Shown here: piece after piece, positions 6,488 to 40,651 of the stretch
Numbering within the stretch: the stretch's first letter is position 1
Layout: every line of letters begins with the position of its first letter
From: Candidatus Omnitrophota bacterium
Lineage (GTDB): Bacteria; Omnitrophota; Gorgyraeia; Gorgyraeales; Gorgyraeaceae
Direction: 5' to 3'
Length of the DNA: 64,000 nt
Assembly (NCBI GenBank): GCA_030649895.1
Contig: JAUSEX010000026.1
Span: forward strand, 16,823-80,822
Program-made: the position numbers and the translations under genes
Notes under the pieces: generated by a model
The model's input: only the letters and a program-made list of their open reading frames with translations
Databases searched by the model: none
What the model was told of the DNA's origin: nothing

Positions 6488-7924
6488 TTATAGGTTTTTA
6501 TATAGTTTCAGATATTTTTCTGCTGATGATTCCCAGGAAAAATCGCAGGATACGCAGTTTTTGAGAAGCGCGCCCCAAAGTTTTTTATCCTTAAACGTGG
6601 CTACTGCTTCTTTAATGGCCTCTAAAAACGCCTCATTGGTAGCGTCTTTAAATTTGAACCCGTTTCCTTTTTTAGCGGAAGGGTCGAAATTCTGTATAGT
6701 ATCGTCCAGTCCGCCCACCGCCCTTACCACGGGCACGGTCGCATATTTCAGGCTATACATCTGATTTAGTCCGCAAGGCTCATATCTGGAAGGCATTAAA
6801 AACATATCTGCCCCAGCCTCTATTTTATGAGACAGGGCATTGTCAAATTTTATACTGACGCCTACATTGCCCTTATGCTTCTTAGCCATATCCTGAAATA
6901 TCTTATTATATTTTTCGTCGCCGAACCCAAGGATTACAAAATCAGAATCTTTCAGTATATCCTTCATGATATTTACAACCAAGTCTATGCCTTTCTGTTC
7001 CGCGAGACGGGTTATCATCGCTAGAATCGGCCTCTTTGCGTTATATTTTATTTCAAATGTCTTGGCAAGGTCTTTTTTGCATTCTTCCTTAGCTTTCAAA
7101 TCCTCTTCGTTGAATTTCTTAGCTATAAACTGGTCCACTGCCGGATTCCAGACAGAATAATCAACTCCATTCACTATCCCATGAAGGTCTTTTTCTCTGG
7201 TCTTTAACAAGCCATCCAGCCCGCATCCGAATTCAGTAGTCAGGATTTCTTTGCTATAGCCCTTGCTCACAGTGCTTATCGCGTCTGAAAAAACTACGCC
7301 TGTTTTCATAAAGCTTATCTTATCCCAGAATTCAATCTTGTCCTGATTAAACAAATCCCAGGATATATCAAGATACGGAACTACATCTTTGATAAAAAGC
7401 CCTTGATAAGCCATGTTATGTATCGTGAACAGCACTTTTACATTATTAAACAACGGGTCATCTTTATAATGGGTCTTTATATATAAAGGCACCAGGCCTG
7501 ACTGCCAATCATTGCAATGAAATATGTCCTGTCTGCCTATGTAAGGTATAGACGCCAGTATTGCCTTTGCGTAAAAACCGAACCTAAAGGCATTGTCCTG
7601 GTAATCGCCCTTAGGCGTGCCGTATAAAAATTCCCTGTCGTAATATTCATTTTTCTCTATAAAATACACGTCCACGCCGTTATGTTTTAAAAGGAGCAGA
7701 TTGAAAAGCTCTTCCCTGTTATTTATCTTCAAAGAGATATTTTTCTTAAACATAACGGGCTTAAAACCGTTTTTCTTAACCAACTGATAGAAAGGCATGA
7801 TCGTACTCGTCTTATGGCCTTTTTTAACAATAGCCTCTGGCAGCGCACCTACTACATCAGCTAAACCGCCGGTCTTAGCGAACGGAAAAACCTCCGGGGA
7901 AATAAATAAAATGTTCATTTTCAT
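6488..7924 (-). CDS. glgA: Glycogen (starch) synthase, GT5
   Basis: N-terminal KTGGLADV motif, about 478 aa. Confidence 0.9.
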   Translation of the reverse strand: MKMNILFISPEVFPFAKTGGLADVVGALPEAIVKKGHKTSTIMPFYQLVKKNGFKPVMFKKNISLKINNREELFNLLLLKHNGVDVYFIEKNEYYDREFLYGTPKGDYQDNAFRFGFYAKAILASIPYIGRQDIFHCNDWQSGLVPLYIKTHYKDDPLFNNVKVLFTIHNMAYQGLFIKDVVPYLDISWDLFNQDKIEFWDKISFMKTGVVFSDAISTVSKGYSKEILTTEFGCGLDGLLKTREKDLHGIVNGVDYSVWNPAVDQFIAKKFNEEDLKAKEECKKDLAKTFEIKYNAKRPILAMITRLAEQKGIDLVVNIMKDILKDSDFVILGFGDEKYNKIFQDMAKKHKGNVGVSIKFDNALSHKIEAGADMFLMPSRYEPCGLNQMYSLKYATVPVVRAVGGLDDTIQNFDPSAKKGNGFKFKDATNEAFLEAIKEAVATFKDKKLWGALLKNCVSCDFSWESSAEKYLKLYKNL

Positions 7925-7989
7925 CCTTTCTTTGCCTATCCCGCTCTCCGGACGGGAATCATTCTGTCCGGGGGAACGGGATCAAGCTG

Positions 7990-9201
7990 TCATTGCAGAA
8001 TTTCGTCCCTGATTTTGCTGGCTATATGCCTTGCAGCAATCACTTTCCCGTAGCATTTTTTCTTTTCGAAATTCCTGCACCCTGAGCTGGCAACTGCCAG
8101 GTACGCATTAAACACTACTTCCTCTTGAAGGATAAGGCCTTTATTTACAAGATTTTCGCTCCACATCCTGCCTTTATTAGCCCACCAGAACTGGCAGCTG
8201 TGCAAAGCCATGTCCAGGTTTTCCCTGGCTGTATTAAAAAATTGCGCTGACTTTTCATTATCATTCTTATCTTCCGCTTCCCGGAATATCTCCAGGCATG
8301 TATCCATATATTCCCACTGCAGCCTGTGGATTGTATTGTGAGGCGTGTTCCATAGTGGATAATAGTTTCCCGCCATTATTTCTTCATTGGAGGTGCTCCA
8401 GGAAGAAGGCCTGGGAGGCTTTACCTTAACTGCTGGAAATATTTCCGATAAATCGCTGATCTTAACCACCTTTACTTCCTTTGAATCTCTTATTATTTCA
8501 TACGCTTTCCCCAAAAACATATTTTCCCAGCCATGGATATGATGGCCGAACGTTTCCGCGTCCATAGCCGTTATTATATAAGCATTTTCCTTGCCTTCCG
8601 CCAATTCTTTAATCCTTGACACAAACCCCGCGGCATCTATATTTTTAAAACTTATCATATTGCTGATTATATCGTCTCTGAAAAATACCTTCATGGAACC
8701 TGAGCCAAGCTTAAAATTTGACGTATAATCCATAGGCCATTTCCCCTGGCATGCGATCCCGCTCACTATAACCCACTCATAACCCATGCCTCTTACAATA
8801 GAGCCTGCTGCGTCAGAGTAGCACATCTCTGGCGGGAAAAATCCTTTTGGCTTATAGCTGTCTTTAAAAAAAGACAGGTTTGTTTTTTTATTCAGCTCTA
8901 TCTGCCTCCTGGCTTCATTCTCGGGTATCAAAGGTAGTATCGCGTGAAATTTCGCTGATTCTGTAAATTCTATCTGTCCAAGCCTGCCTAGTTCCATAAG
9001 GCCGGTTGGGACATCTCCAAAGCCATGATCAGCCAGCATCTCAGTCAGCACCCCGCACATATTTATCGTAACCCTGGATTCGGGATGATCTTTAAAGACC
9101 TTAACCAGAGGCCTGTAAGATTCTTCACAAATCTTTGCCAATACGCCATGCGACTGCGTCGGAGGTTGATAAAAATGTAAAAGCGGCGCCCAATATATCA
9201 T
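7990..9201 (-). CDS. Glycoside hydrolase family 57 protein of unknown specificity (about 400 aa class)
   Basis: N-terminal HFYQP motif and a DAETFGHH catalytic-Asp region. It overlaps the DUF2934 gene by 4 nt (ATGA). Confidence 0.7.
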   Translation of the reverse strand: MIYWAPLLHFYQPPTQSHGVLAKICEESYRPLVKVFKDHPESRVTINMCGVLTEMLADHGFGDVPTGLMELGRLGQIEFTESAKFHAILPLIPENEARRQIELNKKTNLSFFKDSYKPKGFFPPEMCYSDAAGSIVRGMGYEWVIVSGIACQGKWPMDYTSNFKLGSGSMKVFFRDDIISNMISFKNIDAAGFVSRIKELAEGKENAYIITAMDAETFGHHIHGWENMFLGKAYEIIRDSKEVKVVKISDLSEIFPAVKVKPPRPSSWSTSNEEIMAGNYYPLWNTPHNTIHRLQWEYMDTCLEIFREAEDKNDNEKSAQFFNTARENLDMALHSCQFWWANKGRMWSENLVNKGLILQEEVVFNAYLAVASSGCRNFEKKKCYGKVIAARHIASKIRDEILQ

Positions 9202-30435: not shown

Positions 30436-31464
30436 CTATCCTTTACTTTCTAGTTTCTTTTTATCTTCCAGTGAATCCGCAGATAGCAGCTTGTCTTCGA
30501 ATTTATCCAGACTCTTTGCTGCCCTTTCGTAGCTTGATTTTATATTGTCAATATGGCTGCCCATTACCTCGAAATCCTGCGTAAATTTCCCAAGAGATCC
30601 TTTCAAAGTAATCAGCATCTTTATCACTTCCTGCGCCTTCTCCTCCACTTTCAAACCTCTCATACCCAGAATAATCACCTGCAAATACGCGTAGAAACTA
30701 TTCGGAGACACAGGTATGACTTTTTTGGATATAGCGTGCGTAAATATGGACTTTTCTTCTCCGAAACCTTCGTCTTTTATAATCGTTTCGTAATAGACAT
30801 TTTCCGCTGGGATATACATAAGGGCAAAATCATAAGTGCCCTCGTCAGGAAGTATATATTTAGCGGCAATATCATCTATATGCGTTTTTACCGCTTTTAT
30901 AAATTCCTTTTTAGCGCGTTTTTTATCTTCGTCTCCTGTTACCTCCACAAAACGTTTAAAACTCTCCAGCGGAAATTTTGAATCCACAGGCACAAGCCTT
31001 GTCCCTATCTTAATAGCGGCATCAACCCTTTCGCCTGTCTTAAAACAATGCTGAAGCTCATAAAAATCCTTACTGGGCATTATCTGGGCTAAAAGCGATT
31101 CAAGAAACAATTCTCCCAGTCCACCTCTCATTTTAGGCGCCTTGAGTATCTCTTGCAGACTCGCTATATCTTTTCCTACTTCATAAATTTGCTGGGTCTT
31201 TTCATCCAGGGAGCCAAGGCTTTTCTGGACATCGCCAAAAACCCTTGCGGCATTATCCAGTCTCTGGCCAACGCCGCTATTTACTGACGCCAGCTGGGTT
31301 AAAATCAAATCTGTATTTTTTGAAAGCGTATCGCTCCATTCCCTGCGAAGCGCGTTTATTTTTTCTTCACCCTCTTTTGACGCAGAATTGCTCATCTTTC
31401 TGCTAAAAAAGTATATTAGGACCGCTATAACGCAAAAACCTATAATGTTTACCGCTATTATCAT
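30436..31464 (-). CDS. rmuC: DNA recombination protein RmuC
   Basis: N-terminal transmembrane segment, coiled-coil and RmuC C-terminal domain, about 340 aa. Confidence 0.8.
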   Translation of the reverse strand: MIIAVNIIGFCVIAVLIYFFSRKMSNSASKEGEEKINALRREWSDTLSKNTDLILTQLASVNSGVGQRLDNAARVFGDVQKSLGSLDEKTQQIYEVGKDIASLQEILKAPKMRGGLGELFLESLLAQIMPSKDFYELQHCFKTGERVDAAIKIGTRLVPVDSKFPLESFKRFVEVTGDEDKKRAKKEFIKAVKTHIDDIAAKYILPDEGTYDFALMYIPAENVYYETIIKDEGFGEEKSIFTHAISKKVIPVSPNSFYAYLQVIILGMRGLKVEEKAQEVIKMLITLKGSLGKFTQDFEVMGSHIDNIKSSYERAAKSLDKFEDKLLSADSLEDKKKLESKG

Positions 31465-31465
31465 T

Positions 31466-31984
31466 TTATTCCCCGGCCTTCTTCTCCTGAATTTTTTTGA
31501 CGTACATCTGCTGGACCTCTTCTACAGAAATCCCGTTCTTGGCTGCGATAGCTTTATATATAACCATGCGATCTGCGTTCTCCGCTTCAACCAAAGCCCT
31601 TACCGAAGAATCCGCGTTTCCTTTTATTTCAACCAGTCCAAGATTATTTTCTCCGACTGCCCCATTCTCTTCCAGCGAAACAAGCTGAGGCTTCCTATCT
31701 CTGCGGCCATATGCTGCCTGTTCAACCTCAGGCCCGAATGAATCCTGGGCATAAGCCTCTGTTATAAATATATCCATCATACTTCCTTTTTTACCAGGCG
31801 CTGGCTTTTGTGTGTTTCCGGAAACTATATCTTCTATGGCGTCAAGATCCTTTTCAACATGCTGATAGATATCCAGCCTCATTGAGATATCAAGTTTTAT
31901 GGCTTCTTTAGGCGCTTCCACCCTTACCCTGGCGCAGCCAAAAAATGCAACCAACGCTACGAATATTACCCAAAATTTTTTCAT
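31466..31984 (-). CDS. YdbL-like (DUF1318) periplasmic lipoprotein
   Basis: Signal peptide with Cys, and a C-terminal GLVE..G...VRALVEAENADR..IYKAIAAKNG signature. Confidence 0.5.
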   Translation of the reverse strand: MKKFWVIFVALVAFFGCARVRVEAPKEAIKLDISMRLDIYQHVEKDLDAIEDIVSGNTQKPAPGKKGSMMDIFITEAYAQDSFGPEVEQAAYGRRDRKPQLVSLEENGAVGENNLGLVEIKGNADSSVRALVEAENADRMVIYKAIAAKNGISVEEVQQMYVKKIQEKKAGE

Positions 31985-33135
31985 GGCTTCTCCCTCCTGT
32001 TAAAATCGTGCAATACTACCGTCAAGCTCCTCTTCCCGGATTTTCCGTCTAAGCTCATACCCATCGTAAAATTTCTATTTTCCATGCCGAGTCTTATTAT
32101 CCCATTATTATAGTTGTAATTCCTGAAACTTTCCACAATTATATCTAGCGATTGATTTGACTGCTTAGCGACATTTTCCAGAAATGTCTTGTCTTTTATT
32201 ACCAGCATGCCCCCGTTCGCATCCGTACTAAAATAACCTTTTATATCTTTTATATCCTGGCCTTTCCCCGATAAAGAAAATTCCCCGTCCAACCTGCCTG
32301 TCATATCAAATTTCTCATTAAACTCCATCTCATTCACAAGCCTTTTAATATCCAGGCCCTGGCTGTTTAATCTGAGATTATAATTCATATCCTGATCCAA
32401 TGAAATATTAAATTCCCCCTTGACGTTACCGCCAAAAAGACTAACCAGCATGGGGCTTATAGCAAGGATATTGCCTTTCAGGCAGGTTTTTCCTACAACA
32501 TCGCCTATTTTAAGTTTATTGTAATTAATGGTCTTTATATAAAATTCCCCCTCGTCCTGATCCTGGATCGCATTCAACGTTATGCCTTCCGCCTGGAATA
32601 AACTAGTAGCTAAAGAGGTTATATTCAATTTTACATAATCAATCGCATTCGCAGGGATATCCCATCCCAGAGACACCTTCCCTTTTATTTTTATACCCTC
32701 TTTTGTCAGATCAAGATTGATGTTCGTAGCTTCAAACTTGGCTATGGAAAATTTTCCGCTACCCCCGGATGCAACGCCCGGAAAAGGATAAAGACCGAGC
32801 AATCCGTCCTTACCTATATTTATTTTTACAGAAATTTCATTTAAAAGCACCTTTTCTATTTTCTTGTCTACTATTGAATTGAGAGAATAATAAATCCTCG
32901 CCTCTTTTATTTTGAAATCATACGAAGCGCTTCCCTTGATTTCTATGCCCTGAAATTCCATGAAATCTCTTGTCAGCCTGAAGCCTGAAACAGAGCTTTC
33001 CTTGAATACCTTATGAAGTTCTTTATTTATTATAGGAAGTAAAATCGGCTTGGCAAGAAGATAAGCCGCTAAGGAAAAGATTATTATTAATATTACTGAT
33101 ATGAAAAATATTTTAGCGAATATTCGGCGTCGCAT
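31981..33135 (-). CDS. Membrane-anchored AsmA-like/YdbH-like protein
   Basis: N-terminal transmembrane segment and an AsmA-like C-terminal repeat (TGRLDGEFSLSGKG). It is paired with the YdbL-like gene as in ydbH-ynbE-ydbL loci. Confidence 0.35.
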   Translation of the reverse strand: MRRRIFAKIFFISVILIIIFSLAAYLLAKPILLPIINKELHKVFKESSVSGFRLTRDFMEFQGIEIKGSASYDFKIKEARIYYSLNSIVDKKIEKVLLNEISVKINIGKDGLLGLYPFPGVASGGSGKFSIAKFEATNINLDLTKEGIKIKGKVSLGWDIPANAIDYVKLNITSLATSLFQAEGITLNAIQDQDEGEFYIKTINYNKLKIGDVVGKTCLKGNILAISPMLVSLFGGNVKGEFNISLDQDMNYNLRLNSQGLDIKRLVNEMEFNEKFDMTGRLDGEFSLSGKGQDIKDIKGYFSTDANGGMLVIKDKTFLENVAKQSNQSLDIIVESFRNYNYNNGIIRLGMENRNFTMGMSLDGKSGKRSLTVVLHDFNRREKP

Positions 33136-33139
33136 TATA

Positions 33140-33772
33140 TTACTGCATGTATCCGTATTCCCTCAGGATATCTTTAAAATCGCTGGCCTTTGCCTTATCC
33201 TTTGCTACGTATTTTCCTATTATATCCGTTTCCACGTTGATAAAATCGCCTTTTTTCTTTGCGGAAAATGTAGTGCTTTTAAGCGTCTGCGGTATAAGAT
33301 ATACCGTAAAATCCTCTTTTGTTACGCTTGCCACTGTAAGGCTTACGCCGTCCAGCCCCACAGAGCCTTTTTCAACCAGAAAGGCGGCGTATTCTTTCGG
33401 AAGATAGATCTTGAAACCTGTCCCGCCTGATCTTTCAGACACATCCGTAATGGTTCCTTTATAGTCCACATGGCCCGTCAGAAAATGCCCGCCCATCCTG
33501 GCGTCAGCCTTCACGCTTCTTTCCAAGTTTACCGCATCGTTGATCTTTAAACCAGCCAATGTAGTCCTTTTAAGCGTTTCAGGAATTACGTCAAAACTTA
33601 AAATATTCCCGCTGATTTCCGTAACGCTCAGGCACGACCCGTTCACGCAAATACTATGCCCTATCATAGCGTCGAGACGCACCTTATCAGCCTTTATCTT
33701 CAATAAAGCGCCTGTCCCTGTCCGGCTAATTCCCTTTACAACGCCTATCTCTTCAACAATTCCAGTAAACAT
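33140..33772 (-). CDS. ribE: Riboflavin synthase α subunit
   Basis: MFTGIVEEIG N-terminus and the duplicated lumazine-binding domains. The 12-codon upstream extension in the track is encoded by a family-3 repeat. Confidence 0.9.
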   Translation of the reverse strand: MFTGIVEEIGVVKGISRTGTGALLKIKADKVRLDAMIGHSICVNGSCLSVTEISGNILSFDVIPETLKRTTLAGLKINDAVNLERSVKADARMGGHFLTGHVDYKGTITDVSERSGGTGFKIYLPKEYAAFLVEKGSVGLDGVSLTVASVTKEDFTVYLIPQTLKSTTFSAKKKGDFINVETDIIGKYVAKDKAKASDFKDILREYGYMQ

Positions 33773-33787
33773 TTTCAGGCTTTCTAA

Positions 33788-33863
33788 ATACTGTTCGGGC
33801 AAGGCCATTAAGCAGCCGGTCGAAAGCTTCTCGGCTTCGTTCGCTCCGCTCGAAAAATATTTA
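33788..33863. repeat. Family-3 repeat, long inverted-repeat form (ATACTGTTCGGGCAAGG...GCTTCTCGGCTTCGTTCG...GCTCGAAAAATATTTA), between ribD and ribE
   Basis: Same architecture and internal GCTTCTCGGCTTCG(C/T)TCG block as the copy at 54813-54886. Confidence 0.55.
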
Positions 33864-34964
33864 ATTTCTCACATTAGCGCTCACCAAAATATCTTCGCCT
33901 ATCATCTCAACCCTTACATCTCTTAGCTTTATCGCCTGGCTCACCTTATCTACGCCCTTGCCTTCAACGGATGTGACAGCTCCTCTTCCTCCTATAATTT
34001 TAGGCGCTATAAAAAATAAAACCTTATCCGCAAGGCCTTGTTCCAAAAAACCCGATATAGTATCGCCTCCGCCTTCTACCAGGAGGCGGCTGATCTCAAG
34101 CTCTGCCAGCTCTTTTAAAAGCCAGGCCAGGTCTATTCTATTATTCCTGCCCGGGCACGCTATAACCAGTATCCCCTTTTTATTAAATTTCTCTACTTTT
34201 TTAAATATGCGCGGGTCATTTAGAGATTTTCTTAAAATTGCCACTATATTCAAAGCCGGAGATTTTTTTGAAAAGATATTTGCGTCTTCAGGCGCCCTCA
34301 GGTTTGAATCCAGTACAATCTTTATAGGGGATCTGTTTCTTCTTGAGGTAAGTACAGGATTATCTCTTATTATTGTATTCACGCCCACTAATACCGCGTC
34401 CATCCCGCTGCGCAATCCGTGCGAATAATCCCTGGAGGCGTCCGTTGTGATCCATTTTGAATCCCTTGTCTTCGTGGCAATTTTACCGTCCAGAGACTCG
34501 GCGGCTTTTATTGTCACAAATGGCATGCTTTTCGTAGCGTACTTTATAAAAACCTCGTTCAGGCCTGACGCTTCTTTATTTAAAACCCCGACCTTGACAG
34601 AAATACCGTTTTTCTCCAGCTCTCTTTTACCCTTGCCGTTATTCAGAGGATTAGGGTCTATTATAGAAAAATAAACTTCTCTTATGCCGCTTTTTATTAT
34701 CGCCTTTACGCAAGGAGGAGTCCTGCCTACATGAACGCATGGCTCCAGATTCACATAAAGAGTGGCTCCTTTTGCGTCCCTGCCGGCTTTTCTTAGGGCT
34801 ATAGCCTCCGCGTGAAGCCCTCCAGGCCTGGCATGATAAGCGCTGGCTATGATCTTTCCTTTCTTCACAACAAGCGCTCCTACCATAGGATTAGGGCTGG
34901 TAGTGAGCCTGCCTTTTTCAGCCAGCTCTAAAACCTTTCTCATAAAGAATTCGTGTTTATTCAT
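33861..34964 (-). CDS. ribD: Bifunctional riboflavin deaminase/reductase
   Basis: HAE..A and PC..C deaminase zinc motifs plus a C-terminal RibD reductase domain. Confidence 0.9.
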   Translation of the reverse strand: MNKHEFFMRKVLELAEKGRLTTSPNPMVGALVVKKGKIIASAYHARPGGLHAEAIALRKAGRDAKGATLYVNLEPCVHVGRTPPCVKAIIKSGIREVYFSIIDPNPLNNGKGKRELEKNGISVKVGVLNKEASGLNEVFIKYATKSMPFVTIKAAESLDGKIATKTRDSKWITTDASRDYSHGLRSGMDAVLVGVNTIIRDNPVLTSRRNRSPIKIVLDSNLRAPEDANIFSKKSPALNIVAILRKSLNDPRIFKKVEKFNKKGILVIACPGRNNRIDLAWLLKELAELEISRLLVEGGGDTISGFLEQGLADKVLFFIAPKIIGGRGAVTSVEGKGVDKVSQAIKLRDVRVEMIGEDILVSANVRN

Positions 34965-35811
34965 ATTGTTTTAATCGTGACGCGTCTCTTAATTTTTCCA
35001 CAAGCTCATAAGAGACTTTCACTTTGCCCAGCAGTACTTCTTTTTTCCCAAGCCCGTGACAATCGGATCCGCCTGTCACAAGCAAGCCGTATTCTTTAGC
35101 TAATGCCTTAAACTCATTTGACTCTCTGGCATTATGATCGGAATGATAAGCCTCTATGCCCTGTACACCCTCGCCTACAAGCATCCCGACCGTATCCCTC
35201 AAAGGTCTATTTTCCGTATTAATAGTCTTAGGATGAGCGAGGACGCTAACGCCGCCTACAGACTTTATCATATCGCTAGCTTCTCTGGGGGATAGTTTGA
35301 ATTTTTTTACATAAGCGGGCGAGTTATTGCCTATATATTTAGTAAAAGCATCCCTTACGCAGGATATCTTTCCTTTTGCATACAAAAGATTCGCTATATG
35401 CAGCCTGCCTACGGAATTCATGCCTGGGCCCGCAAGCTTCAGCAGATCTTCATACTGTAAATCAATTCCCTGTTCACTCAGCCTTCTCAAGATCTCTTTC
35501 GCCCTTTCTTCCCTGACCCTGCATAGCTCTTCCAGTTTTTTTGTAAATTCCTTATTTTGCCAGTCAATAAAATATCCCAGCATATGAACTTCGTCGTCTT
35601 CGAGTTCCGTGGTTAATTCCACGCCAGGGATAATCTCGATATCCATGTCTTTTGCAAACATGATCGCAGGCGCAATTCCTGCGCAAGTATCGTGATCTGT
35701 TATTGCAATAGCGTCCAGTCCAGCCAGTCCGGCCAAACTCACAACCTTTTCAGGAGAAAATGTGCTGTCGGAAATATTCGTGTGAACATGAAGATCAGCT
35801 ACTTTTCCCAT
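34957..35811 (-). CDS. PHP-domain metal-dependent phosphoesterase (TrpH/YciV-like)
   Basis: DLHVHTNISD, HD, HP and DCH metal-binding motifs. It overlaps the ribD start by 8 nt. Confidence 0.75.
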   Translation of the reverse strand: MGKVADLHVHTNISDSTFSPEKVVSLAGLAGLDAIAITDHDTCAGIAPAIMFAKDMDIEIIPGVELTTELEDDEVHMLGYFIDWQNKEFTKKLEELCRVREERAKEILRRLSEQGIDLQYEDLLKLAGPGMNSVGRLHIANLLYAKGKISCVRDAFTKYIGNNSPAYVKKFKLSPREASDMIKSVGGVSVLAHPKTINTENRPLRDTVGMLVGEGVQGIEAYHSDHNARESNEFKALAKEYGLLVTGGSDCHGLGKKEVLLGKVKVSYELVEKLRDASRLKQYE

Positions 35812-35816
35812 TTAGC

Positions 35817-35859
35817 AATATTGTTCGAGCAAGGCACCGAAGATGCCGAGTCGAGAACT
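35817..35859. repeat. Family-3 repeat copy B (AATATTGTTCGAGCAAGGCACCGAAGATGCCGAGTCGAGAACT), overlapping the nusB stop
   Basis: About 90% identical to copy A at 18957-18999. Confidence 0.65.
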
Positions 35860-36274
35860 ACTGTTTACATTCAGTTTTCTTAATTTTATCGAGTATCCCG
35901 TTGACAAACTTCCCGGAATCAACATCACCGTATTTTTTAGCAAGCTCGATGGCTTCATTAATAGAGACATTAAGCGGGATATCATCCTTGTAGAGCATCT
36001 CATACACGCACAGGCGCATTACATTCTTGTCTATGACAGCCATCCTGGATATATTCCAGTTATTCGTATATTTTGAAATAAGATCGTCTATGGCTTTTAA
36101 ATTTTCGCATGTGCCTCTTACCAGAGTTTCGGTGAAGTTATGCGCCTCTTCATCCGCTGAATCCGCTGATTTCGACCAGAAATCCTTAAAACTATCCTCA
36201 ATCGACTCCCTGGAGATCTCTATCCTGTAAAGAATCTTTAAGGCGCATTCCCTCGCAAAAGTGCGTTTACGCAT
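35858..36274 (-). CDS. nusB: Transcription antitermination factor NusB
   Basis: NusB fold motifs, in the conserved position after ribH. Confidence 0.85.
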   Translation of the reverse strand: MRKRTFARECALKILYRIEISRESIEDSFKDFWSKSADSADEEAHNFTETLVRGTCENLKAIDDLISKYTNNWNISRMAVIDKNVMRLCVYEMLYKDDIPLNVSINEAIELAKKYGDVDSGKFVNGILDKIKKTECKQ

Positions 36275-36275
36275 A

Positions 36276-36740
36276 TCAAAGCTCCGCTATCAGATTCGCC
36301 ATTTCAATAGCTGAGCGGGCTGCGTCACGGCCTTTATTGCCCTGTTTCGTGCCTGCCCTTTCTATTGCCTGTTCTATTGAATCAGCTGTAATAATTCCGA
36401 ACATCACAGGCACTCCTGTATTTAAGGAAACATTTGCTATGCCCTTGGATGCCTCGCTCGCCACGTAATCAAAATGAGGCGTCGCTCCTTTAATTATAGT
36501 GCCAAGACATATGACTGAATCATATTTCTTGCTCTTTGCCATATGACTCGCAAGAACAGGTATCTCGAATGCGCCTGGAGCCCACACGACATTAATGTCC
36601 GTTTCTTTTGCCCCATGCCTTAAAAGCTCATCAACGCACCCCTCCAGAAGCCTCTGCGTGATAAAATCATTGAATCTTGAAGCTATAATGCCAAATTTTT
36701 TGCCTTTCGCAACTAGTTCGCCCTGAATTACTTTGTACAT
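36276..36740 (-). CDS. ribH: 6,7-dimethyl-8-ribityllumazine synthase
   Basis: Lumazine synthase motifs, about 154 aa. Confidence 0.9.
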
Positions 36741-36774: not shown

Positions 36775-37998
36775 TTATACTACAGTATATGCGGCTAGGG
36801 ACCTTTTTAATTTATGCCCTAATTTTTTCTTTTTTGTTTCCAGATACCTGACGTTAGCGCAATTAGGCTGCACTTCCATTGGAACCCTCTTTACCACCTC
36901 CAGGCCATAACCGGACAAGCCGACTATCTTACGGGGATTATTCGTGATAAGCTGGATTGTTTTCAACCCAAGATCCGCTAGTATCTGAGCTCCTATGCCA
37001 TAATCCCTTAAATCTGGCTTAAAACCAAGCTGCTCATTCGCCTCTACCGTATCAAAGCCTTTATCCTGTAAAGCGTACGCCTTTATCTTATTAGCCAAGC
37101 CTATGCCCCGGCCCTCCTGCCTCATATACAAAAGAACGCCTCTATTTTTTTCTCCAATAAGCCTCAAAGTTCTTTTAAGCTGGTCCCCGCAATCGCATCT
37201 TCTGGATCCAAATATATCTCCTGTAAGGCATTCTGAATGAACGCGCACCAGAACGTCTTTTTTCCCCTTCACGTCCCCTTTTACTAAAGCCATATGCTGG
37301 TATCTATCAATGCTTGATTCATAAAGATACAATTTAAAAACTCCGTAATCCGTGGGAATCTGGCTATTCGCAATACATGTCACAAGTTTTTCTGACCTGC
37401 GCCTGTAATTTATAAGCTCCGCTATGGTGCCTATTTTAAGCTTATGTTTTTTTGCAAACTTAACAAGGTCTTTCTGTCTCGCCATTGTGCCGTCATTATT
37501 TATTATTTCGCATATAACCCCTGCGGGATAAAGTCCCGCTAATTTCATAAGGTCAACGCATGCTTCCGTATGGCCTGCGCGCGTCAATGTCCCCCCATCC
37601 TTTGCCCTCAAAGGAAATACATGCCCGGGACGAGCCAGATCAGCAGACATTGTCCCGGGATTTATCAGGGCTTTCACTGTAACAGAGCGGTCATGCGCTG
37701 AAATACCCGTAGTAGTATTCTTTTTAGCGTCTACGGAAATAGCCCATGCGGTTTTGAACGTATCCTGGTTTTCCTCATGCATTGGATGCAGGCCCAGTTC
37801 ATCGAGCCTTGAACCTTCCATTGGCATGCATACAAGGCCTTTTGCATGCGTTATAATAAAGTTTATTGCCTGCGGGGTCGCGTATTCAGCCGCAATAACA
37901 AGATCGCCTTCATTCTCGCGGCCTTCATCGTCCACAATAATGACCATCCTGCCTTTTTTCAAGTCCTTGCTGATTTCAGGTATTGTATTAAATTTCAT
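36775..37998 (-). CDS. ribBA: Bifunctional DHBP synthase / GTP cyclohydrolase II
   Basis: N-terminal RibB (DDE.RENEGDL) plus C-terminal RibA (C..C.C zinc motif), about 407 aa. Confidence 0.95.
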
Positions 37999-38066: not shown

Positions 38067-38101
38067 TTAAAATTAAAAATGCCCGAAGAGAGTCTTCGGG
38101 C
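38067..38101 (-). terminator. FMN-riboswitch expression-platform terminator (9-bp stem GCCCGAAGA/UCUUCGGGC + AUUUUUAAUUUU)
   Basis: Hairpin plus U-tract. The CUCUCUUC strand of the loop and stem is complementary to the aptamer 3' segment GAGAGAAGAG, which would act as an anti-terminator. Confidence 0.75.
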
Positions 38102-38104
38102 AAT

Positions 38105-38240
38105 AAAATACAACGCGCTTACCTCTTCTCTCATCTAGCCTTTCACAATCGGTTCCGGAATCACGCCGGATCTGCCCTCTTTTACGAGAGCTCGCGGACT
38201 TTACCGCCGGTGGGGAATTTCACCCTCTCCCGAAGATACT
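38105..38240 (-). promoter_or_regulatory. FMN riboswitch (RFN element) aptamer in the ribBA leader
   Basis: The minus-strand RNA reads ...CUUCGGGAGAGGGUGAAAUUCCCCACCGGCGGUAAAGUCCGCGAGC...GAUUCCGGAACCGAUUGUGAAAGGCUAGAUGAGAGAAGAGG, matching the conserved RFN core (GGGUGAAAUUCCC, ACCGGCGGUA, CAGUGAAAG, GAUGGGAGAAG). Confidence 0.85.
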
Positions 38241-38244
38241 GTGT

Positions 38245-38272
38245 ATTATACCAACTTACGCCTTTTTGTCAA
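38245..38272 (-). promoter_or_regulatory. Consensus σ70-type promoter of the rib operon (TTGACA-16 nt-TATAAT), a few nt upstream of the riboswitch
   Basis: The -35 box is the reverse complement of 38267-38272 and the -10 box is the reverse complement of 38245-38250, both read directly. Confidence 0.6.
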
Positions 38273-38289
38273 TATCTATTTCCCGATAA

Positions 38290-39339
38290 TCACAGGATTT
38301 CCCTGAGAACGGATTGGAGGTTTGCCTGGACAATTTTGGGTTCCTTGACGGATTTTATAGCGCGATCCGGGTCTTTAAGCCCATGGCCGGTAAGCACGCA
38401 TACAAGTTTTGGTTTTTTGAATTTTTTGAAGTACCCTTGTTTATTTAATTTTATCACGCCGGCTACTGAAGCAGCTGAAGCAGGCTCTACGAATACGCCT
38501 TCTTTTGAAGCCAGAAATTTATACGCCTCCAGGATTTCATCGTCAGAAACCATATCTATGAGTCCCCTGGATTCATCCCGCGCCTCTTCTGCCATTTTCC
38601 AGCTGGCAGGATTTCCTATTCGTATAGCAGTAGCGATAGTCTCTGGTTTTTCTACAATTTTGCCTCTGACTATAGGAGCTGCGCCTTCTGCCTGAAATCC
38701 AAGCATGCAAGGAAGTTTTTCTATCTTACCCTTCTCTTTATATTCTTTATACCCTTTCCAGTAGGCGGTGATATTGCCTGCGTTGCCAACCGGAATGACA
38801 TGAAAATCTGGGGCAAAACCTAACTGATCGCATATCTCAAAAGAACCGGTTTTCTGGCCTTCTATCCTGTAAGGATTTATTGAATTCACAAGCTGGATAC
38901 GATGTTTGACGGTAATTTCTTTTACAAGATTAAACGCGTCGTCAAAATTTCCATCTATTGCGATAACCTGAGCGCCATGTATAAGCGCCTGGGCGAGCTT
39001 ACCAAGAGCTATGACGCCTTTTGGTATTAAGACGATACATTTAATTCCAGCCTTGGCGGCATACGCAGCTGCTGACGCAGAGGTATTGCCGGTAGAAGCG
39101 CATATTACAGCTATATGTTTTTCTTCCAAAGACTTTGAGATCGCCATAGTCATGCCTCTATCCTTGAAAGAACCGGTAGGGTTAAGGCCTTCGTATTTCA
39201 GATACGCCTCCCCGCCAATTAATTCTGAAAGATGGCGTGAATACACCAGGGGGGTATCTCCCTCATTGAGAGTAACCACAGGGGTGTCTCCGGTAACCGG
39301 CAAAAATTCCCTGTATTTATCTATAACGCCTTTCCACAT
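38290..39339 (-). CDS. thrC: Threonine synthase
   Basis: PLP-dependent fold with the lysine motif SFKDRG, about 349 aa. Confidence 0.9.
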
Positions 39340-39343
39340 AAGA

Positions 39344-40651
39344 TTATTTCTCCATCCTTATAACAACGCTTTTCTTTTTTATGGCAGGCAGCTTGTTGAT
39401 TCGAGATAATGCGGCTTGCATATTCGACTCTTTCGCCTCATGCGTAAGCATAACTATAGGAACAATGTGCGCCTCGCGTCTTTCTTTTTGCACAACGCTT
39501 GCAATGCTTATATCATGCCTGCCCAAAAGGTCTGCTATGTTTGCAAGCACGCCTGGCTTATCTACTGCGGAAAAGTGCGCGTAGTACCTGGTCACTACAT
39601 CGTCCATCTTTTTGATATTTTTTATTTCAGAATCTTTTGGCGTAACCGGCTTGGCTATCTTGTTTCCGCAGATGACTTTATAACCGATATCTACTATATC
39701 GTTTAATACAGCGCTCGCGGTAGGTAATTTACCCGCTCCCTGGCCATAGAAAAGCTGCTTGCCCACTAGATCAGCTTCTATAAATATCGCGTTATACACG
39801 CCTGAAACGGATGAAAGCAGATATTCGGATGGCAATAGAGTGGGATGAACCCTTACCTCTAATTCATTTCCATAACGCTTCGCTATTGCAAGAAGCTTTA
39901 TCACGTAACCCAGTTCTTTTGCATACTGTATATCAAAGCTAGAAATATCCTCAATACCCTCAACAAAGATATCTTTTATATCCACTCTCTTTTCAAAGGC
40001 CAGAAGAGAAAGTATGGCAAGCTTGTGGCTGGAGTCCAAGCCCTTTATATCAAGAGAAGGATCTTTTTCAGCGTAGCCTTTCAACTGCGCCTCTTTAAGA
40101 ACAGCTTTAAAGCTTGAGCCCTGGTTTGACATATTTGATAGTATATAATTCGAAGTGCCGTTCAAGATTCCAAAAATACTAGAAAATCTATTACCCACCA
40201 TACCTTCCCGTATTGCCTTTATAATAGGAATCCCTCCGCCTACGCTAGCCTCAAAATATATTTCCCTATTCAGGACCTTGGCCTTTTTGAATATTTCATC
40301 TCCCGCATACGCCAGAAGCAGCTTATTGGCGGTAACCACATGTTTTCCTTTAGATAACGCCTTCATCACAATCTCTTTCGCAGGGTGAATCCCGCCTATC
40401 AACTCAACAACAATGTCAACAGCCGGATCATTAACCACTTTATCAAAATCTCTGGTAAGGATTTCTTTAGGCAAATTTACGTCTCTTTTAGAAGACAAAT
40501 CTTTGTCGCAAACCAATGAAAGATTAAAATCTATTCCTGTGCGCTTAAATAGCAGCCCTCTCTTTTCCAGGAGAAACCTTGCGACCCCGGAACCTATTGT
40601 GCCGAAACCTATCAATCCAATGTTTATTCTATTCTTAATTTTTTTATTCAT
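39344..40651 (-). CDS. hom: Homoserine dehydrogenase (with C-terminal ACT domain)
   Basis: NAD-binding GFGTIGSGV, the catalytic domain and an ACT domain. Confidence 0.9.

Follow-up and report, generated by a model that had tools for sequence, protein, structure and literature searches.

The window considered here, a stretch of 64,000 nucleotides (nt) from contig JAUSEX010000026.1 of a Candidatus Omnitrophota bacterium, carries a riboflavin operon on its minus strand, in which a gene for a PHP-family phosphoesterase (the PHP gene) is located between nusB and ribD. A preliminary description of this locus had proposed that the encoded enzyme dephosphorylates 5-amino-6-(5-phosphoribitylamino)uracil (ARPP, also ARAPDP), the one step of riboflavin synthesis that lacks a universal enzyme. 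We checked the window genes of the operon against Pfam at its curated cutoffs and against NCBIfam at each model's own cutoff. All of them pass the former, and ribBA, ribH, nusB, ribD and ribE each pass at least one of the latter, so that the order ribBA-ribH-nusB-PHP-ribD-ribE given in that description holds for every gene. From the promoter downstream, the locus contains:

38245-38272, minus strand: sigma70-like promoter (TTGACA, 16-nt spacer, TATAAT, TG extension; 12/12 consensus match)
38119-38241, minus strand: flavin mononucleotide (FMN) riboswitch aptamer RF00050 (the match covers the whole model, at 98.9 bits with a gathering score of 66.2)
38080-38102, minus strand: terminator-like hairpin directly 3' of the aptamer, a 10-bp stem (6 GC pairs) followed by the T-run TTTTTAATTT
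36775-37998, minus strand: ribBA, dihydroxybutanone phosphate (DHBP) synthase / GTP cyclohydrolase II (NF006803, 619 bits against a cutoff of 569)
36276-36740, minus strand: ribH, lumazine synthase (TIGR00114, 182 bits against 84.6)
35858-36274, minus strand: nusB, transcription antitermination factor (TIGR01951, 147.5 bits against 88.35)
35812-35857, minus strand: nusB-PHP spacer of 46 nt, with a small stable hairpin (minimum free energy -11.9 kcal/mol) that has no T-run
34957-35811, minus strand: PHP gene, 284 amino acids (aa), predicted COG0613 phosphoesterase of the RNase AM / pAp-phosphatase type (Pfam PHP, PF02811, 47.6 bits against a cutoff of 26.4)
33861-34964, minus strand: ribD, deaminase/reductase (TIGR00326, 342 bits against 156)
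33140-33808, minus strand: ribE, riboflavin synthase (NF006767, 210 bits against 155)

The promoter, riboswitch and hairpin had not been part of the preliminary description, and they bear out its suggestion that the PHP gene is co-encoded and probably co-regulated with ribD, as both genes lie in the same operon behind the riboswitch. Read in the direction of transcription (38272-38245), the putative promoter is the best of 28 promoter-like matches between positions 31000 and 40000, as ranked by consensus match. The hairpin (38102-38080) is probably the expression platform of the riboswitch. With these three elements at the head of the operon, co-regulation of the PHP gene with the rib genes by FMN is therefore plausible.

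The 8-nt overlap between PHP and ribD reported earlier is real, the PHP stop codon being located at 34957-34959 and the ribD ATG at 34964. This ribD start at M1 is credible, since residue 5 of the window RibD aligns with residue 4 of E. coli RibD, and since the N-terminus MNKHEFFM recurs in close relatives. The overlap is nevertheless ordinary for such a tightly packed genome and statistically not special, because overlaps are common among the gene pairs of the window: 14/58 same-strand neighbour pairs (24%) overlap, and 28/58 (48%) lie within 20 nt of each other. The window has a pronounced strand bias, with 61/63 predicted genes on the minus strand, and its GC skew is uniformly negative over all 64 kb. 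Translational coupling as evidence for a ribD-specific tie was dropped, given how common overlaps are here and given that, in the loci compared below, nusB and PHP overlap no less often than PHP and ribD do. As for the hairpin in the nusB-PHP spacer, it may be a processing or stability element, or may have arisen by chance; in most relatives nusB and PHP overlap instead.

By sequence and predicted fold, the window protein is a member of the two-lobed PHP group of COG0613, and its earlier assignment as a PHP-family phosphoesterase stands, with the PF02811 match and all nine metal ligands present. The annotation of a Candidatus Omnitrophota metagenome-assembled genome includes a protein identical to it. 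By phmmer, the solved relatives of the window protein are 3E0F (1e-35), 7UG9 (3e-31), 9ETK (9e-27) and 2YB1 (4e-26). In its AlphaFold (AF2) model, with a mean per-residue confidence (pLDDT) of 89.8 and a predicted template-modelling score (pTM) of 0.87, helices 87-160 form an insertion lobe, and Foldseek superposes the full length, including this helical lobe, on 3E0F, 9ETK and 2YB1 with template-modelling (TM) scores of 0.85-0.87. The histidinol-phosphate phosphatase 2YXO reaches a TM of only 0.34, which together with an NF004981 score of 36 bits against 117 ruled out a PHP-type histidinol-phosphatase (HisJ/HisK). All Pfam and NCBIfam matches of the protein are PHP-type, and none indicates homology to the HAD, histidine phosphatase or inositol monophosphatase (IMPase) families. 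The best two NCBIfam matches are NF041577 (3',5'-nucleoside bisphosphate phosphatase; 176.3 bits against a cutoff of 400) and NF047791 (RNase RNM/AM; 163.3 bits against 375).

In E. coli RNase AM, residues H13, E72, D255, H83, H198, D20, H45 and H257 bind three Mn ions, R107, R110 and R141 hold the buried 5'-phosphate of the first nucleotide, and F161 stacks on its base (PMC9410882); the Phe at this position has been called strictly conserved in the family (PMC11528712). We built a profile alignment of the window protein with 80 proteins from the compared loci and four PDB sequences, comprising 44 rib-linked proteins, 2 NusB fusions, 35 unlinked homologues and 4 solved structures. In this alignment the nine ligands H8, H10, D15, H40, E65, H76, H193, D250 and H252 coincide with H13, H15, D20, H45, E72, H83, H198, D255 and H257 of RNase AM, and the pocket is made up of R100, R103, R136, H138 and F156. 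The equivalents of all fourteen are invariant in each group (44/44, 2/2, 35/35 and 4/4), and 42 positions are conserved to at least 95% over all 81 clade sequences. Rib-linked and unlinked proteins are told apart by four weakly discriminating positions only (T17, F18, V134 and K256), none of which is a ligand or pocket residue; residues that would mark the rib-linked proteins as having a specificity of their own were sought, and none of substance came out of this comparison.

ARPP has a single phosphate, and this one would have to lie at the metal centre. Since the residues that hold a further phosphate and stack on a base are strictly conserved, the active site argues, by analogy with the solved enzymes, for a substrate of the 3'-phosphoadenosine 5'-phosphate (pAp) or 5'-phosphorylated (5'-P) RNA type. 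We therefore assign the window protein with good confidence to the biochemical class of 5'-phosphonucleotide/RNA phosphoesterases of the RNase AM / pAp-phosphatase type, a substrate class that we infer from RNase AM and Cv1693 homologues; for the range of substrates in the COG0613 group we draw on PMC9410882, PMC11528712 and general knowledge.

The likeness to RNase AM of E. coli (YciV/TrpH, 7UG9) and V. cholerae (9ETK) extends to the PHP fold with helical lobe (TM 0.85 to 9ETK), the nine metal ligands, the three-Arg 5'-phosphate pocket and the stacking Phe, while the two differ in sequence (24-28% identity), in the NF047791 score (163 bits against 375), in the Arg equivalent to E. coli R201, which the window protein does not have, and in location, the E. 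coli gene lying beside the trp operon. 5S, 16S and 23S rRNA all receive their mature 5' ends from RNase AM, and the COG0613 family was earlier misnamed trpH by reasoning from gene position, as in the preliminary description (PMC7261194). RNase AM also acts as a diribonuclease (PMC11528712). As a 5'-P exoribonuclease, RNase AM removes intact flavin adenine dinucleotide (FAD) from FAD-capped RNA in vitro, and its knockout alters cellular levels of FAD-capped RNA, although this deFADding could not be told apart from the general 5'-P exonuclease activity (PMC9410882); it is the only published tie between the COG0613 family and flavins. The pAp phosphatase Cv1693 of Chromobacterium violaceum (2YB1) similarly shares the fold (TM 0.86), the metal ligands and the AMP-binding residues with the window protein, and differs in having 26% identity, an NF041577 score of 176 bits against 400 for the window protein, and a window gene without sulfate-assimilation genes nearby. 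BAD_1165 of Bifidobacterium adolescentis (3E0F/3O0F) is the closest solved relative both by sequence (E 1e-35) and by structure (TM 0.87), and shares K256 and the missing proteobacterial Arg; being a structural-genomics protein without an assigned physiological role, it adds no functional information.

Homologues outside riboflavin operons point in the same direction. At 40-45% identity, unlinked homologues occur as recX-rny(RNase Y)-ymdB-(spoVS)-PHP in 11 loci of Dehalococcoidia and Clostridia, and next to the genes for ATP sulfurylase and APS (adenosine 5'-phosphosulfate) kinase (PHP-sat-cysC) in 3 loci of Halanaerobiales/Bacillota. The two contexts match the two activities that have been published for the family: rny-ymdB goes with the degradation of RNA 5' ends and of oligoribonucleotides, and sat-cysC with pAp hydrolysis, the latter being a pAp-generating context that parallels Cv1693. 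No recurrent neighbourhood was found for the other unlinked homologues (Elusimicrobia, Saganbacteria, WOR-3 and others), and an association with rib genes was not seen for homologues in other phyla. In two further loci, the PHP homologue is followed, with an overlap of 1-4 nt, by a gene for a HAD-superfamily hydrolase: at 7621-8430 in a Firestonebacteria metagenome-assembled genome (MAG), where the pair lies after queD/queE-like genes and before smpB (L017), and at 1393-2121 in a contig labelled Hadesarchaea (L023). This pairing is of possible interest, as HAD enzymes are the usual ARPP phosphatases.

How far the arrangement of the window is conserved was assessed in two scans. The first, centred on PHP and taking one genome per GTDB species, gave 80 loci, about 45 of which have the order ribBA-ribH-nusB-PHP-ribD-ribE, with PHP identity down to about 40%; these are all of the Omnitrophota-labelled loci together with MAGs labelled 'uncultured Planctomycetia' that cluster with them. 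Because rib operons without PHP are invisible to such a scan, the second was centred on RibD and covered metagenome contigs. Here PHP adjoins ribD in all 12 of the closest RibD relatives that have upstream sequence, while the remaining rib operons of the sample have the classical order ribD-ribE-ribBA-ribH without PHP, about 11 of them ending in nusB. The linkage of PHP to ribD, which the preliminary description had named as the property to check in relatives, is thus kept in both sets, so that this check does not refute its proposal, and the presence of PHP in the rib operon is a conserved yet lineage-specific trait. An FMN riboswitch precedes ribBA in six of the loci tested for it (L002, L006, L011, L012, L013 and L018), and precedes ribD in a seventh, L014. 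This last one is the sole Omnitrophota-like locus with the classical order, riboswitch-ribD-ribE-ribBA-ribH-nusB-PHP followed by two tRNA genes (7862-8085), so that PHP comes after nusB and far from ribD. Its order is a cyclic permutation of the common one, and such a permutation would bring the last gene, PHP, and the first gene, ribD, together without any functional reason. Furthermore, in two loci of UBP3-like lineages ftsY, the gene for the signal recognition particle receptor, is inserted between PHP and ribD (1408-2319 in L033 and 1594-2508 in L071), and in most loci the nusB-PHP junction overlaps by 4-17 nt.

The strongest departure from a ribD-centred arrangement is found in the anammox class Brocadiia. 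Two Brocadiaceae loci encode NusB and PHP as a single polypeptide of 436-437 aa, with both domains recognized by Pfam (6503-7813 in L061 and 6500-7813 in L075). When this fusion was used as a query, its best 120 homologues all carried PF01029 and PF02811 (120/120), down to 49% identity, and spanned Brocadia, Jettenia, Kuenenia, Scalindua and Hypogeohydataceae; an exhaustive search extended this set by full-length fusions of lower identity (35-45%), including one of a 'Candidatus Brocadiia bacterium'. In the other Brocadiia lineages examined (L082-L087), every fusion context reads ribH-nusB::PHP-ftsY (the fused gene at 8001-9323 in L082 and L084), and no ribD, ribE or ribBA is present within 8 kb of it. 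The two Brocadiaceae loci read ribH-nusB::PHP, again without ribD or ribE, and no FMN riboswitch was found at the Brocadiia fusion loci examined. In a neighbor-joining tree, the PHP domains of the fusions and the Omnitrophota proteins fall together in one clade, which is broad and weakly resolved. Public annotation names these fusions just 'transcription antitermination factor NusB' or 'PHP domain-containing protein', and a literature search for a link or fusion between NusB and a PHP domain found no paper.

Because of the order in L014, the ftsY insertions, the contexts of the fusion and the overlaps at the nusB-PHP junction, the conserved core is ribH-nusB-PHP(-ftsY), whereas only in Omnitrophota does PHP adjoin ribD. 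Its most constant neighbour is nusB, which lies next to it in about 45 loci and is fused to it in Brocadiia, and the genes nusB, PHP and ftsY recur together as a housekeeping block, at times within a rib operon. The linkage of ribH to nusB is itself old and widespread without PHP, as exemplified by E. coli K-12, where the order is nrdR-ribD-ribE(ribH)-nusB-thiL-pgpA (433002-437107). This E. coli cluster also holds pgpA, an unrelated phosphatase gene, two genes downstream of nusB.

We consider it somewhat better than an even chance that the window protein is a 5'-phosphonucleotide/RNA phosphoesterase partnered with NusB. As a trinuclear Mn/Zn-type PHP hydrolase, it would anchor a nucleotide through its 5'-phosphate (R100, R103, R136 and H138) and its base (F156), and the 3'-phosphate or 3'-phosphodiester would be hydrolysed at the metal centre by cleavage of the 3' P-O bond. 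The outcome would be the conversion of pAp to AMP and inorganic phosphate, and/or stepwise 5'-to-3' trimming of RNA with a 5' monophosphate and of short oligoribonucleotides. Omnitrophota, UBP3-like lineages and Brocadiia share ribH-nusB-PHP(-ftsY) as an old block, with NusB rather than RibD as the constant partner of PHP and with the two tethered in the Brocadiia fusion through a disordered linker. PHP would then be in the riboflavin operon because nusB is there, and would abut ribD in Omnitrophota because ribD and ribE happen to follow the block, both of them preceding it in L014. A common role of NusB and PHP in processing the 5' ends of rRNA or other RNA, as the reason for their link, is more weakly suggested, though a functional partnership in the processing of rRNA leaders or 5' ends seems the most economical reading, and the rRNA 5'-end maturation role of RNase AM would fit it.

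More tentatively still, an RNase AM-type PHP protein may be a dedicated partner of NusB, adjacent or flexibly tethered, across bacteria related to the Planctomycetes-Verrucomicrobia-Chlamydiae group (Omnitrophota, UBP3-like lineages and Brocadiia). Bound to BoxA of nascent rRNA leaders, NusB would bring a 5'-end-trimming or pAp-clearing activity to the antitermination and maturation machinery. Precedents of a kind exist: in RsmB/Sun, a 16S rRNA methyltransferase carries a NusB-like domain fused to its N-terminal side, and SuhB, which belongs to the rRNA antitermination complex that contains NusB, has the IMPase fold. These offer, as analogies only, a NusB-type module on an rRNA-acting enzyme and a phosphatase-fold partner of NusB; the PHP protein is homologous to neither catalytic partner. 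The window NusB also matches RsmB models in NCBIfam. It is conceivable, if rather doubtful, that a PHP protein recruited by NusB serves this rRNA machinery as an accessory not described before, for which SuhB and the NusB-like domain of RsmB would be loose analogues.

We must however take into account several points that weigh against a NusB-partnered phosphoesterase. Because its scores fall below both NCBIfam equivalog cutoffs, the window protein is, by sequence, a distinct subfamily. The Arg that contacts the scissile-site sulfate in the proteobacterial enzymes (R201 in E. coli, R194 in Cv1693) is not conserved and is T196 here; this loss, common to all non-proteobacterial homologues including 3E0F, is the sole notable difference from the proteobacterial enzymes. 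The AF2 model of a Brocadia fusion has both domains near a pLDDT of 90, a linker below 50, which is thus predicted to be disordered, and a pTM of 0.63, without a fixed NusB-PHP interface; such a model is uninformative as to direct contact, neither supporting nor excluding it. A fusion of overlapping neighbours could, moreover, arise by a single indel and be tolerated. One UBP3-like locus (L047) has lost nusB and reads PHP-ftsY (7836-8750)-ribD-ribE, without a riboswitch. Lastly, ribH is always two genes away from PHP, Brocadiia included, and in Omnitrophota the whole unit, nusB included, sits behind the FMN riboswitch.

Some of these same observations would be expected if the protein, with its biochemistry unchanged, were a housekeeping pAp phosphatase and/or nano-RNase that has no functional tie to its neighbours at all, the fusion being a tolerated accident. 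The disordered linker and the 4-17-nt overlaps, which would ease fusion, are compatible with this, as are the strong co-directionality and frequent overlaps in the window, the continuation of the operon into AsmA-like and DUF1318 genes, and the several unrelated contexts of homologues in other phyla. However, at least two phylum-level lineages have kept the order ribH-nusB-PHP, and the fusion is class-wide down to about 35% identity, a retention so long that it exceeds the usual persistence of neutral gene order. We therefore regard such a chance association as unlikely, without dismissing it.

The proposal of the preliminary description, that the PHP protein is the ARPP/ARAPDP phosphatase of this lineage, a fourth non-orthologous family co-transcribed with ribD, which makes the substrate, and ribH, which uses the product, fares less well, and we now hold it to be quite improbable. 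It is true that the PHP gene is preceded by an FMN riboswitch and has nusB on one side and ribD on the other, with both order and riboswitch conserved in Omnitrophota, and that PHP is upstream of ribD in every one of the 12 closest rib loci that could show it. The substrate of RibH is the product of ARPP dephosphorylation, and ribH is always nearby, also in Brocadiia. The PHP superfamily moreover includes phosphomonoesterases such as histidinol-phosphate phosphatase. The variability of the step across lineages, also noted in the preliminary description, agrees with the literature: it is served by different and often non-dedicated families, namely HAD (E. coli YigB/YbjI, B. subtilis YcsE/YwtE/YitU and plant PyrP2), an Aquifex histidine-family phosphatase and an Aquifex IMPase, none of them PHP and, as reported, none encoded in rib operons (PMC12051542, PMC13151069). 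These are phosphohydrolases as well, and the step they catalyse follows RibD and precedes RibH, the genes for which lie on either side of the window gene. Their folds are, however, unrelated to PHP, and ARPP would leave partly empty the two-phosphate nucleotide pocket that is retained in the window protein. A PHP protein is not mentioned in the paper on the Aquifex ARAPDP phosphatase, and a literature search for COG0613 and riboflavin found nothing relevant.

Both the active site and the situation in Brocadiia speak against an ARPP phosphatase. The three Arg, the His and the stacking Phe for the second (5') phosphate and the base are invariant, shared with unlinked homologues and with RNase AM and Cv1693, and, judging from these homologous structures, the rib-linked pocket would carry no adaptation to a single-phosphate ribityl-pyrimidine; the fold, too, is the two-lobed one of RNase AM and not HisJ-like. 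In Brocadiia, PHP is fused to NusB, away from ribD, ribE and ribBA and without a riboswitch. Furthermore, nusB and ftsY show that genes unrelated to riboflavin ride in this operon, rib operons of other lineages do without PHP, and the overlap with ribD is ordinary for the genome. A role in stripping FAD caps from RNA, with the FMN riboswitch coupling flavin supply to the turnover of FAD-capped RNA, is very improbable: although RNase AM has this activity in vitro, its knockout shifts FAD-capped RNA (PMC9410882), the catalytic and pocket residues are conserved and the operon is under FMN riboswitch control in Omnitrophota, deFADding is possibly a side activity, riboswitches are missing from the orthologous loci in Brocadiia and the sequence has no flavin-specific feature.

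Were the ARPP reading true, this step would gain a fourth enzyme family and its first enzyme from within a rib operon, to the benefit of pathway annotation and engineering. On the evidence this is unlikely; as with the trpH naming of the same family, the case instead shows that operon position alone can mislead. While the enzyme family itself is known, the phylogenetically deep association of NusB and PHP, including a class-wide fusion in anammox bacteria, is apparently undescribed. It provides a lead on how, in phyla that have received little study, transcription antitermination may be linked with rRNA 5'-end processing or with the clearance of pAp and oligoRNA, and would allow better naming of thousands of entries that now read 'PHP domain-containing protein'.

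As to the surroundings of the operon, neither a PHP paralogue nor an ftsY gene was found elsewhere in the 64-kb window. Downstream (31466-33135, minus strand), an AsmA/YdbH-like gene of 384 aa begins 4 nt past ribE, and its overlap with a DUF1318 (YdbL-like) gene likewise measures 4 nt. Both genes also follow ribE in L002, and an AsmA-like gene does so in L003 and L005, such that the transcription unit led by the riboswitch may extend into envelope lipid-transport genes. Upstream (38290-40651, minus strand), thrC, recognized by its Pfam PALP domain, lies directly before the rib promoter, together with a homoserine-dehydrogenase-like gene assigned by inspection of the sequence, and this hom-thrC-rib order also occurs in L001.

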